Below, piece after piece: positions 395-63,990 of a DNA stretch of 64,000 nucleotides. Below the pieces are notes generated by a model, which saw only the letters and a program-made list of their open reading frames with translations, did no database searches and was not told the origin of the DNA. The stretch covers positions 43,834,001 through 43,898,000 of the forward strand of contig OZ024753.1 in assembly GCA_964016885.1 (NCBI GenBank). The letters are read 5' to 3'. Origin of the DNA: Eledone cirrhosa. Its lineage: Eukaryota. Each line of letters starts with the position of its first letter. Within the stretch, counting starts at the first letter, position 1. Both the position numbers and the translations under genes were made by a program.

Positions 395-462
395 AAAAGA
401 TTCAGGACCCTGAAGGCTGGGCTACGATCGTTTCAGCAGCTAGATCTGAACTAAAGCGCCAG
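395..462 (-). mobile_element. 5'-truncated hammerhead-bearing repeat (3' half only: GAAAC-GATC-GTA)
   Basis: Minus strand reads ...gctgctGAAACGATCGTAgccc. Stem III is the perfect palindrome ACGAUCGU, typical of minimal Penelope-type hammerheads. No upstream CUGANGA; flanked by (TA)n. Confidence 0.5.
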
Positions 463-463
463 T

Positions 464-940
464 ATATATTCTATATATTATATATATATATTATATATAT
501 ATTATATATATATATTATATATATATATTATATATATATTATATATATATATTATATATATATATTATATATATATTATATATATATTATATATATATAT
601 ATTATATATATTATATATATATATATTATATATTATATATATTATATATATATATTATATATTATATATATATATATTATATATATATTATATTATATAT
701 ATTATATATATATATATTATATATATTATATATATTATATATATATATTATATATATATATATATTATATATATATATTATATATTATATATATTATATA
801 TATATATATTATATATATATATTATATATATATATATATTATATATATATATATATATTATGTATATATATATATATATATTTATTATGTATATATTATA
901 TATATATATATATATTATGTATATCTATATTATATATATA
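464..940. repeat. (TA)n / (TATAT)n microsatellite
   Basis: Visible simple repeat. Confidence 0.97.
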
Positions 941-1222
941 AATATAGACCCATACATATATACATATGTCTAGTGCGTTGAATAGTTTTCTGTAGTGTGT
1001 ACAGTTCAAGGTAAGAAGAGTAAGTTATCGGGAGCTGAGGAGGGGAAACTAGAATATAATAAAATACAATAAACGAGATAAAACTTGTTTAAAAAATAGA
1101 ATTGTTTTGTGTCTAGGTGAAGGTAGAGGTGTAGAAAGATGAGTGTGTGATAGTTAATGCTAGAATTGAAATTAGGGTTAGTTAGAATTAGGGTTAGAGT
1201 TCGTATATCTATCAATGCAACA

Positions 1223-1261
1223 GTTTCTTATGAAGGGAGTTTAGTCCTGAAATATTAAAAC
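1223..1261 (+). ncRNA. Decayed minimal type I hammerhead motif
   Basis: GTTT-CTTATGA-AGGG(agtttag)TCCT-GAAA-TAT-TA-AAAC. Stems I and II pair; the core has a G5->U change, so it is probably inactive. Confidence 0.5.
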
Positions 1262-58717: not shown

Positions 58718-58925
58718 TCACCATATATGTTCAACTCTAAGCTGACCCTACTATTTTATGTCTGAGAAATGGGCAAAAATCCTAACCTTATTTACGTAGA
58801 ATTTGAAATTTGTGAAAATCCTCAAAATATTGACTTTGAATATAAGCTGACCCCTACACATACACACACTCTTCTAACATTGATTTATTAGTCACATATT
58901 CCTTGGCTTATATTTCAGTATGTAC
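58718..58925. mobile_element. Possible pogo/Tigger-like MITE remnant
   Basis: TAAGCTGACCC twice and terminal GGCTTATATTTCAGTATGTAC resemble that TIR class. Confidence 0.35.
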
Positions 58926-60289
58926 AATATATTTAAATATAACAAAATATTGTGGAAGAATATTTTTGTTAAGCTATGTCGTTAATGCCAGCTTAATGAT
59001 ATGGTTAATTATTTTGGTATAAACCTTCAAATTGTTGTTTAATTAGAAAATTAATTGAAAAACATAGATGATATATTTCATTAGCAATATTGAAAAGATT
59101 AATGTTTGGTTAATAATGGATACTTGAACAGGTAAGCTAATCAACATTTGCAGGTACACAGAAAAAAAAAGGAAACAAACAAGAAAAAGAAACGAGCTAC
59201 TGTGAAACAACAATAGATACACTTTCTAGATATATAGGAGTAAATGTGTTTAGATGTGGTGGAGTGTTTTTCACAAAGATAATTGCTCTCGTTTATTTAC
59301 ATTAGAAGAGACAAGTTCAGTCAGCATCACCCAGCAAACATCACACAAAGAGAAACTACTTAGATATTATCAGGACTGCCGATGTTATTGATGAACCAAT
59401 CAACAAATATCATACTTGACACTACACTTTACTAAAATAGCTGTCAATAATGCTTCTCAGCTTCAGCTTCTGTTTACAGATAACTGTAGGAAATAAAGCT
59501 ACAGTCCCTATTGATGGTAGCAAAAGACTAACGCTTCACATACGATAACAATGGAGCTATCAATTTTTCTGTTAAAGATGACTACTGAAGATAATGATGA
59601 CTGTGGTCAAAGAATCTCACTTATTTATTTTATATCATCATCATCATCATTTTCGTCATCATCGTCATCATTATTGTCACCACCACCACCATCCTCATCA
59701 GCATTTCCCTCATCATCAGCATCATCATCATCATGTCTGCTATCCAAACTGGTATGGGTTGGATGGGCTGTCATAATCCGAGACCCAAAACCAGATGGGT
59801 CAGAGCAACCTTACCTTGCTCATATGTTCCATATTTGGCATGAGTTCTACATCTGGATGCACTTCCTAATGCCAACTATCATACATAATCTACTGGAGGA
59901 AGATATGTTTTTCTAGTACCAGTAGTACTACTCCATTGTGTGAATTCGGTGGCAATTTTATCATGTCACCAGCACTAGCGAGATTGTCACCAGCACTAGC
60001 GAGATTGTCAAATATTTGTCCAAACAGAAGAGTCCTTTCAAATATTATATTTTATCTGTTTGCTTGTCAAACACTCTAACCGCTGATCATTCACCTTGTT
60101 TACTTGTAGTATTACAGTAACACACCACTTGTACTGATGGTCAGGTCATTTAAGTCTTATGTATATTTAATAATACAATTTGTAAAAGATAGCCACTTTG
60201 GTTACAGATTTCCACTGAACCATTCACTTTATTTGCTGGAACTGGCTTCACTTCTAAAATAGGAAATTGTTTGCTTTTAAGTGTTTATA

Positions 60290-60850
60290 AATATTTACCT
60301 AATAATCTTCCATTATGATAAAAAATCTTTGTTGTTTTGTTCCAAACACCAGCTTAATAATGAGAAATAAAATATAGTTTATATTGCTAAATCCTTCTGA
60401 ATGTTTTATTACTTTCAAAATTATTTGGAAATCATATGCAGCATCTTTTGTTAGATATATAGCAACAAAAGGGTTAAAGTGTTTGTATTTATCTAAAACC
60501 TTTTATCAGAGTTTTATGTCAGAATCTTTGTTATATTCTAAACACCATTTTAATAACAAGGAAATTAGTTATATTACTAAATCCTTCGAAATAAATTATT
60601 CCTTTCAAAATTATTTGCAAATCATATGCAGTGTCTTTTATTAGAAATATGGTAACAAAAGGGATAACATGTTTCTATTGATCTGAATATATTCCATCTT
60701 ATGTAAAAATCTTAATGATGTTCCAAACACCAGCTTAATAATGAAAAAATTAGTTATATTGCTAAATCCTTCCACATCTTTGATAGCTCTCAAAATTATT
60801 TAGAAATCATGTGCAGTGTCTTTTATGAAAAATATGGTAAGAAAAGCTAA
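60290..60850 (-). mobile_element. Three tandem partial copies of MITE family 2
   Basis: Repeated TTC(C/T)AAACACCA...TAATAA...TCAAAATTATTT blocks ending in AACAAAAGGGTTAA-like termini. Confidence 0.6.
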
Positions 60851-63847
60851 TTTTACAGTTTTCTTTTTGATATGTACTGGCAAAGGAAACACACACAAAC
60901 AAACATATTCTTTTATTCCTTTATTTGTTGTAGTTATTAGAATATAGCCATGCCAGGGACACAGACTTGGTGTATTCTATATCAACCCAAGGTTATGATA
61001 GAAAACACTTGGTTGACTTGAGGCTATAGTAGAAGACATCCATGGTTCTATACAGTGGGACTGAGTCTGGAACTACATGTTCTTTAACAAATGCCTTAGC
61101 CTCACACCCATGCACATACCTATATATAAACATTTATAAATTGTTTGTAACGTGATATTGCAGAGAGTTCTTTTACAAGTCCATTACATGTCTTTGATGT
61201 CTTTGAAATTTAGCCAAATTGGAACCAAAAAGGTTTTAATTTAAACAGAAATCCTTTAATATGTGTTGTTTTGTTTATAAGACCCAGAACCAGTTCTGGC
61301 TGGGCTGTTGGAACTTCTTAATATATGTGGATTTGTTTCATAGAAGCAGAGCTGGTTTTTCTATCAAAGCAGTTAAAGATATTTCTGTGCAAGGATAGAT
61401 GAGAAATCCACCTACTTATTCTCCACAAGTTTCCTAATTATGGCAATCGAGTGGCTGCAATTTTTATGGATGTAAATGAAATCTTTATTTGGCTTTTATA
61501 AGGGTAGCATTTATATCTGTCCTTAACTCTAATATTATGTCTAGGAATTTTACTATCATTAAGTTAATTACTAGAGATAGATATATTTAAGCCAAACTCC
61601 TGAAATATTCCTATTAAATTTACAGCCCTACTTACAAATTAGAATTAAGCTATATCCCTACCTATAAATTAAGCTGTATGAGATAAAAGGCAACCTTCAT
61701 GTCTATTCTCTGTGAAATATACGAATACTATTCAGAAAGATCTACAGTACATTATTGAATACACAGAAAGGATAATCAACTTCATGAAAGTCTTCTTCTA
61801 TAGATTACTGGAATGCTTCTAGACAAACTTGGATTCCAAACCTGAAAGAGTCTTTCCAAAACCATTTTGAATATAATCAAGAATTTAGAGGAATTTATCA
61901 GTGGAACAAACTTTATCACCATGAAGTTGGTGTTTGGAGCATAATTGCTCAGATTCTTACAGGAAATAATGATAAAAGGATTTTAGATAAATATAAACAC
62001 TTCAAAATATAAAGCTTAGTATTGTAGAACCAGGGGCAGATTTAAGCATTTTGGTATCAAAATATTTAAGCGTTTTACAAATTTTGCATTTAGTCTTAGC
62101 AATCTGATAGAAGCAACCACTTTGCAGAGTTTACTGTGTGAATGAATATATATATATATATATATATATATATATATATATATGGCATCGAGCTGTATGA
62201 GCAAGACATGGTCACCTGATCTGGCATTGCTCACAACAGGATAACTCGTCTAACCCATGCCAGCATGGAGAAGTGATGATAATGATTATGATGATATGGA
62301 CACACACACACACATATATTTATATATATATATATATATATATATATATATATATATGCAAACATGGAAACACTTACATAAAATGGACATTAAACAATGA
62401 TGATGATGGTGATGATGATGTGTATTTTGAATAAGAAGTGATATATCCCAATATTAAAAGGAAAATATATATATTGACATATTGAAATTAAATGCTAGGA
62501 ACTTTCTTATTGAACTGTCTAAGACAATAAACTTTATGATTTGAAATGGTTTTCTCAATCAACATTAATATATGCAGTTGAAAATATTACCTGTAATTCC
62601 AATGCAAAAACTAAATCATTTGTCTCATAGTTATAGGAGATGAGACATGCTTCACGTTACATAATAATTTTATTTCTCTTGGGTTCAGATAATCTCTTTT
62701 GTAACCGAATACATGACATGCAGAATACAAAATAATCGGGAGTAATCTCTCTAAGAGTATATTACATAACAGAACCACCATTTTTTTTTTTTATTAGTCT
62801 TTTATTTAAAGCAACCAACTGTATTCATTTATTCTCTTTGAATTGTGTTTCTAGAGAAAATTTATTCCAGTTTAAAGAGATGCTGATGATAATATCAAAA
62901 CTTATCCTAAAACTCTTCTGATATCGTTTCAATTTGGAGAAGGAGAAGAAAAAGAGGAGAAGGTAGAAGAAGAAGAAGGTAGTAGAAGAAAAAGGTAGTA
63001 GTAGTTTAGTAAGCAACAAATCAAATAATACATGAAGGATCTCTAAAATAAAATTTTTAACATTGCCAAGTTTCAATTGCAAGAATGACCTGACAAAAAT
63101 TGATACAATCAACATCCAATTAACTTAGGAAAACAAAATATCTTACTCTTCAATTTGAAGGAAAAAAAAAGGCCAAAAGAAAAAGAAATAAATAGATAAA
63201 TGAAAGGAAAATATATTTACAAGGCAAAAGTGAAAACAGAGAGGAAGGAAAGGAAAAAAGAAAAGACTGAAACAAAAAAAAATCCCACCAAAAAAAAACA
63301 GCATCATGTTCATCTATTTTATTGGAGAACATTTCTTCCATAGTGTTGTTCAGATTTTGGTACAAAGCTCGCTACTTCTAGATGCATCCATTGAATAAAC
63401 AGAAGCAAAATGTCCACAAGAGAGGAAATAATGGAACTTTAATCAGTGAGATGTATGTGGTGAATGAACGTGACTTTTCTGGCATTTTCTGTACAAATAC
63501 TGTAAACCATCCAAAGTAGCTTTATTTGTATTTAGTGGGGAGAAGTAAAAACAACAACAAAAACAATTGGTTGAATTATCACCTTCCTGGTAAATGTATT
63601 AAACTAGTAATCCCAAAATCCAAAGATGTGTAACATTGGATATTGAACTGCTAATGTATGCTTTAGAAGTTCAACTTCCAACCATGTAGGTTGGCCCATC
63701 ATGTAACAGTTTCAGCAAGTGTCTTGTACTATTGTTTGGGGTTGACCAATGCCTTGTGAGTGGAAGTGGAATTTGAAAGACAGAAACTACAGAAGCCTGT
63801 CACATATATATAATTATATATATAGTTATATAATAAAAAAACATAAG

Positions 63848-63990
63848 ACAATTATTCCATTTACCAAAGGTTTCATGAAGACAGACGAGCTTGACACAGA
63901 TATTGTAATATGTTGTTTATTTCATAACTAAATAGCTCTGTAGCCTACATAGAGCACTCTCCTTTCCTTTACCTTTCCTACGGAAACACT
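63848..63990. mobile_element. Family D hammerhead repeat: inverted hammerhead 3' half plus direct tail
   Basis: 63848-63900 is the reverse complement of 19629-19680; 63910-63987 matches 19686-19762. Confidence 0.8.

Follow-up and report, generated by a model that had tools for sequence, protein, structure and literature searches.

We analysed a stretch of 64,000 nucleotides (nt) of the Eledone cirrhosa genome (assembly GCA_964016885.1, contig OZ024753.1, forward-strand positions 43,834,001 to 43,898,000), hereafter the window, for short dispersed repeats carrying parts of the type I hammerhead ribozyme (HHR), and related these repeats to Penelope-like elements (PLEs) elsewhere in the 3.0-Gb assembly. 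The window is AT-rich, with microsatellites throughout. As shown in Table 1, it holds 15 insertion sites with type I HHR parts, which belong to seven families (A, B, C, D/E, F, G and H) and were located by blasting family representatives back on the window; 14 of the 15 lie within the first 32.2 kb. A first-pass annotation, made from the letters of the window, had proposed about seven unrelated repeat families with hammerhead motifs, and each site that it named belongs to a repeat family in which the fuller copies show the type I hammerhead layout. The number seven holds once D (423-434) and E (1817-1846 and 28982-29012) are merged, but the families are not all unrelated, the D and E proteins being 64% identical. 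To that list are added a partial tandem copy of A (2972-3099) and three F sites (21316-21542, 27132-27208 and 32080-32189).

Table 1. Hammerhead-bearing repeats in the window. Positions are those of the window; genome candidate numbers, entered at one row per family, are lower bounds.
Positions	Strand	Family	Feature	Details	Genome candidates
388..465	-	D	3' half of HHR and element end, inverted, adjoining (TA)n		888
1225..1303	+	H	decayed minimal HHR	G5 changed	16 matches, alignment
1763..1937	+	E	3' end	cut off just inside stem II; 5' core half missing	
2972..3549	+	A	partial tandem of probable Hydra-type PLE 3' end, then (TA)n	2972-3099 repeats 3273-3400 at 99%	1259
3244..3355	+	A	HHR	stem I 3244-3247/3352-3355; core 3248-3254; long stem II; G12-A15.1 3340-3343; predicted cut after 3351; first stem II pair altered	
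10429..10630	both	B	inverted pair	minus HHR 10449-10487; complete plus HHR 10503-10541	1056
10503..10541	+	B	plus-strand HHR	stem I 10497-10502/10542-10547; U10.1-U11.1; predicted cut after 10541	
13239..13286	-	G	decayed minimal HHR		several fetched copies
19602..19779	+	C	3' end	HHR core from 19609 to predicted cut after 19667; position 10.1 altered	2818
21159..21290	+	B variant	truncated at C3		
21316..21542	both	F	inverted pair	A4-core HHR 21377-21417 on minus	1210
27132..27208	+	F	fragment, stem III onward		
28891..29096	both	E	head-to-head pair of 3' halves		
29313..29504	both	B variant	inverted pair	minus copy retains core; stem I lost at inversion joint	
29763..29885	+	F	3' end	HHR 29819-29859: A4, U10.1-U11.1, U17; stem I 29814-29818/29860-29864; distal helix 29798-29806/29865-29873	
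32080..32189	-	F	decayed copy		
63819..64000	both	C	inverted 3' half 63819-63900 and tail 63909-64000		

The type I core (C3-A9, G12-A15.1, U16.1 and H17 in order, with stem I open) is seen in the window for A, B and C, in genomic copies for G and H, and as a U3-A8 variant for D/E. About seven window copies retain the full core: six match all 11 core columns of their family representative, and C at 19609 was added as the seventh by inspection. Three complete cores had been proposed, and of these the B motif at 10503-10541 passes a strict descriptor, whereas those of A (3248-3351) and C (19609-19667) keep the core but have a first stem II pair that differs from most copies. The inverted B partner at 10449-10487, with a stem I of 4 bp, also passes the strict descriptor. 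Note that a descriptor demanding a 10.1-11.1 pair misses all real motifs, and a relaxed version was used. Family A has a 4-bp stem I, a stem II region of 85 nt and a short stem III; its window copy has lost the first pair of stem II, which is U-G in most of the other 29 fetched copies. Family B combines a 6-bp stem I with U10.1-U11.1 and a 4-bp stem III, and stem II of family C is usually closed by G-U or A-U, the window copy having C there. In the minimal motifs G and H, both decayed in the window, the stem III region is self-complementary and 4 nt long; stem III measures 4-5 bp in several families (B, E and F). When folded with RNAfold, an E copy formed the three-way junction, and stem I formed in A, B and C.

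The window copies of D/E are without the 5' half of the core, in which U3 and A8 replace C3 and G8 in full copies. Exact matching across the genome gave 4,924 hits for the D/E 5' half and 46,146 for the 3' half, with none for either reversed control; the two patterns differ in degeneracy, and inverted copies are counted twice. Position 7 takes all four bases among the 100 listed 5' halves, while U4 is fixed. Most D/E copies evidently end inside stem II, as do all of those in the window. Roughly one in ten of the listed 5' halves (including those in loci L065 and L374) has C3 together with A8, which breaks the 3-8 pair and may mark a subfamily with a mismatched core.

Stem pairing supports the motifs at the level of families. 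Arms of stem I pair with their own partner over a mean of 5.3 bp and across families over 1.5 bp, 2 of 30 cross pairs reaching 4 bp; these six window families were chosen for having stems, so that the comparison is supportive only. The core itself is kept over 22 family representatives. When 4 E and 6 D copies are aligned, three stem II pairs differ in a compensatory manner, 90.5% of cells are paired, and the covariation score exceeds that of all 500 shuffles, although the two subfamilies are related and represent few independent events; the count of double-change pairs does not beat the shuffles (365/500).

Long copies connect several of these repeats to coding elements, which supports the link to PLEs drawn in the first-pass annotation; as a check, that annotation had suggested looking for extension into reverse transcriptase (RT) and GIY-YIG reading frames. 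In all families the 3' end is constant and (TA)n follows it, and the 5' ends are ragged; inverted partners are frequent, and partial-tandem copies occur. The expected tandem or inverted truncated insertions and self-complementary stem III are supported. Of 30 A loci, 19 match the A endonuclease, with the HHR ~510 bp downstream from the GIY-YIG domain; loci L167-L170 contain RT motifs together with that domain. Both an upstream RT/endonuclease match and an HHR ~1.1 kb after the endonuclease were found in 14 of 25 E loci, among which L325 reads 160 + 625 amino acids (aa) in one frame with a single stop. For F, an endonuclease lies upstream in 5 of 30 loci, 931-978 bp away where there is no deletion, and L143 also has an RT match. 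For D, the figure is 2 of 30 loci, reaching the endonuclease and the C-terminal edge of the RT only. The A, D and F proteins are 33-64% identical to the E protein (D having the highest value), for which 221 homologues were obtained at E<=1e-20, most of them unnamed and ~700 aa long, including one in Argonauta. The proposed "ORF-less population" (ORF, open reading frame) therefore does not hold for A, D/E and F, which are 3' ends of elements encoding RT and GIY-YIG. Their window copies lack an ORF because they are 5'-truncated; a tblastn search of the window with four PLE proteins as queries found no PLE ORF.

PMC8557442 characterises the Hydra clade of PLEs by a CxCX5C linker, absence of the CCHH motif, CxxC and CxH flanking the E and N of the catalytic site, and the motifs DKT and RWK. 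The linker, the lack of CCHH and both CxxC and CxH are complete in A, E and F, and D has the linker and CxxC. A contains RWK and DKT, and E contains DKT and RWR; this region is not reached in D and F. The (TA)n insertion preference is likewise seen, (TA)n being present in the 3' flanks. Judged from these protein features, A, D/E and F probably belong to Hydra, and by eye the RT blocks resemble those of Hydra-1_Obim. The motif style of B and C fits the same clade.

Taken together, the window repeats are very probably 5'-truncated 3' ends of Hydra-type PLEs inserted in (TA)n, with proteins seen for A, D/E and F and likely for B and C, each carrying a type I HHR predicted to cut weakly. The GIY-YIG domain would nick (TA)n, and the RT would prime near the RNA 3' end, usually stopping or switching strand within a few hundred bases. 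Such early-aborting target-primed reverse transcription would leave the 3'-terminal hammerhead over-represented, and weak cleavage after position 17 would occur in dimers held by the self-complementary stem III, or with the help of protein, as reported for other PLE hammerheads. The distance of the hammerhead from the 3' end is 25-200 nt, so that the motif is present in whole or in part in most stubs. The density therefore reflects amplification of PLEs and not selection at each locus; many genomic copies are decayed.

We next consider the scale of this population. Forty 10-kb stretches at round coordinates across the chromosomes (400 kb, 0.013% of the genome) contained 70 sites with a total of 93 copies, belonging to 17 of the 26 family representatives; the reversed sequence contained none. 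At least one copy was present in 29 of the 40 stretches, and the resulting density, one site per 5.7 kb, agrees with the roughly one per 5 kb proposed from the window, where the sites are concentrated as described above. Among 79 copies in a second pass, 48 extend across the core and 38 agree with it in all 11 columns, the latter being a rough figure (families I and R have offsets shifted by one, the core of the C representative is mutated, and D, N, S and Z are excluded). Extrapolated, these values correspond to ~0.5 million sites and ~0.3 million intact cores genome-wide. Note that the abundance of B and G rests on candidate counts and the 400-kb sample. With 16 of the 93 copies, family L was the most frequent in the random sample, and the flanks of loci L001-L150 contain at least 18 further hammerhead families, most with a perfectly self-complementary stem III; the motif in L054 also has U3-A8. 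When a rough set of 415,510 candidates was collected genome-wide and 74 of them were scored with Rfam Hammerhead_1, 18 exceeded the cut-off, and none of 14 control genomes gave a match to that model. Canonical matches of 35-38 bits occur in L379-L388, and L379 adjoins an inverted copy of its own upstream flank.

Family F differs from the others in its core. With position 4 left free, 19,089 of 19,294 pattern matches have A there, and the remaining 205 have G, T or C, as expected from later mutation; the reversed pattern gave none, the number of copies is at least 19,294, and the best are 96-100% identical. No RNA data set was listed as containing F; two sequencing runs coded as other organisms cover position 4 with no listed difference, a weak observation on which nothing is based. 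The motif has U10.1-U11.1, U17 and a 5-bp stem III, and beyond a 7-nt bulge stem I continues in a 9-bp distal helix. The stretch from the F endonuclease to the 3' end gave no other canonical core. F is hammerhead-like and is not a member of the consensus, position 4 being A instead of U. Substitutions of U4 lower hammerhead activity. U4C lowers activity yet permits viroid infectivity, as reported in PMC3088659. A bolder reading, to which we give little credence at present, is that alongside some half a million hammerhead-derived loci the fixed U4A core of F, as a young Hydra-type family, still self-cleaves, rescued by a contact between loops 1 and 2 or by the element's own protein, and would be a new active core variant.

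Several results weigh against assigning the window repeats to hammerhead-bearing Hydra-type PLEs. Descriptor matches in the window do not exceed chance, with 2 strict matches against 0-2 in 10 shuffles and 17 matches with one core mismatch against 3-16; RNAfold z scores of seven window copies (-1.14 to +0.27) are no better than those of shuffles, and the minimum-free-energy folds of B and F differ from the three-way junction. The window gave no Rfam hammerhead at the gathering score and none among the best 150 of 456 E-value rows; its Rfam matches were discarded as simple-repeat microRNA noise plus one tRNA-like match. On the protein side, the Pfam GIY-YIG match is below the cut-off (20.2 against 22.6 bits; E 0.00076), and there is no Pfam RT match. 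Upstream of B (85 loci) and C (55 loci and 5 extensions), no ORF was reached, and a join of B to an endonuclease in L048 proved to be a chimera, the B motif lying downstream in 1 of 20 loci with that endonuclease. Since the hammerhead claim is weak on the window alone, the case rests on evidence at the family level. Chance matches in AT-rich repeat DNA would account for the shuffle-range descriptor counts and folding scores and for the missing Rfam match, but this explanation is refuted at the family level by thousands of genomic copies against none for reversed patterns, by the location at PLE 3' ends and by covariation, and we regard it as scarcely credible. For B and C, and perhaps G and H, another possibility is mobilisation in trans, either as non-autonomous PLE derivatives without an ORF or as retrozyme-like elements. 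B was traced ~1 kb upstream through a duplicated unit of ~186 bp into (TG/TA)n (30 loci fetched of 37 matches), and upstream homology of C likewise ends in (TG/TA)n tracts, so that both walks end in microsatellite without an ORF; an array in L126 (4.6 copies of 310 bp) has an HHR that shares stem II with B, and retrozymes are argued to derive from PLE pseudo-LTRs (bioRxiv 10.64898/2026.07.22.740005). However, the window contains no head-to-tail array of ~300-bp HHR units, and truncation, inversion and (TA)n follow the same pattern in B and C as in A, E and F. Furthermore, the untranslated regions (UTRs) of E and F are 0.9-1.1 kb long, and internal microsatellites could block an upstream walk from B or C. 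We consider separate, trans-mobilised elements rather improbable.

The remaining question is whether the motifs are structural relics, with the fold kept or merely carried along and cleavage dispensable. The spread of F to its present number of near-identical A4 copies with no other canonical core in the 3' UTR is in favour of this idea, as is the good proliferation of HHR-less Naiads described in PMC8557442. On the other hand, the core is preserved over the 22 family representatives while the stems differ and still pair, and the U3-A8 swap preserves the catalytic 3-8 pair. This conservation of the core and of the 3-8 pair argues for selection on an active fold in most lineages, and the relic explanation appears unlikely, if less so than trans-mobilisation of B and C; truncated ends of Hydra-type PLEs with hammerheads predicted to cut weakly are the reading that we prefer.

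Already published are hammerheads in PLEs, the U3-A8 core and a Hydra element from an octopus (PMC4209133, PMC8557442); new here are the scale, extrapolated as above, and the A4 core of family F. The elements resemble the Hydra-clade PLEs of PMC8557442, including Hydra-1_Obim of Octopus bimaculoides, in a C-terminal GIY-YIG domain without CCHH, the CxCX5C linker, DKT, (TA)n targets and a 3' HHR. Hydra HHRs in File S2 of that paper mostly have U10.1-U11.1 and often U17, a style matched by B (U10.1-U11.1) and F (both features). The present HHR sequences differ from that of Hydra-1_Obim, and no row of File S2 has A4 or U3-A8. As described there, the additional families are small in number, whereas here proteins are linked to at least three groups, whose copies number in the tens of thousands. 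The minimal PLE hammerheads of PMC4209133 are similar in being type I, with self-complementary stem III, many families of diverse sequence in each genome, motifs that are mostly single and truncated, inverted pairs and U3-A8; cleavage as dimers, with low activity, was proposed for them. The 4-5-bp stem III of B, E and F differs from that of these minimal motifs, and the highest number given in the account, ~9,000 in Xenopus, compares with the 46,146 exact D/E 3'-half matches. A type I HHR in repeats without an ORF at the locus is also a property of metazoan non-LTR retrozymes (PMC7229834; bioRxiv 10.64898/2026.07.22.740005), but those are described as ~300-bp tandem units, whereas the present repeats are dispersed truncated ends with coding parents for A, D/E and F. 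Covariation to U3-A8 and U10.1-U11.1 are also natural and tolerated in the core-variant hammerheads of Perreault et al. 2011 (PMC3088659), the text of which mentions U4C in a viroid and no U4A. Neither a U4A core nor such an abundance of hammerheads was reported in the literature searched, and supplements beyond it may bear on both.

Standard Rfam scans miss these motifs, so that estimates of how many ribozymes such genomes carry fall short by orders of magnitude. In the giant squid, 235 Rfam hammerheads were counted (PMC6962438), and the repeat annotation of O. vulgaris mentions Penelope-like elements, with no occurrence of "ribozyme" (PMC13282606). If a fraction of the core-intact copies (~0.3 million by extrapolation) sits in sense orientation in introns or UTRs, host transcripts could be cut. 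The need for PLE hammerheads in transposition is treated as an open question in PMC8557442 and PMC11167929, the latter stating that the role of cleavage is unproven even in the best-studied PLE, and F provides a test in nature: should the A4 motif be dead, a PLE has amplified more than 19,000-fold without cleavage; should it be active, the core consensus needs widening. Given that the hammerhead class is known, the basic finding is no surprise, and the interest lies in the abundance and in the A4 family.

Some further observations concern neighbouring or related elements. In L048 (the same as L175), a Neptune-type endonuclease is joined to the B upstream region at ~1090-1100, at a short common stretch, possibly through a template switch between PLE families. 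Loci L176-L194 contain a separate Neptune-type PLE with a CX4CxxC linker, a CCHH-type endonuclease (up to 466 aa open) and a hammerhead-like motif in its own 3' UTR (318 candidates). Upstream of C, an unrelated neighbouring repeat was set aside as not being C's own upstream sequence, and an RT match in L250 is apparently part of an adjacent element that has an HHR-like end of its own. At L126:1708-3123, the 4.6 tandem units are identical, each with a complete minimal hammerhead, and the array looks like that of a non-LTR retrozyme. Two E copies in opposite orientation (L284:2417-2514 and 2661-2758) have many A-to-G changes in one and many T-to-C changes in the other, which resembles ADAR editing of a double-stranded intermediate before insertion.

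Within the window, 3' tails of families J and G, cut off downstream of the hammerhead, lie at 43312-43484 and 57467-57539, respectively. A 24-bp minisatellite of 130 copies (34733-37834) yields spurious ORFs of 900 aa, and an 11-bp array of 65 copies precedes it at 33964-34678. A repeat resembling a short interspersed element, with a tRNA-derived head (Rfam tRNA match at 44843-44900) and a (CAT)n tail, occurs at 1400-1726, 13415-13741 and 44836-45002.

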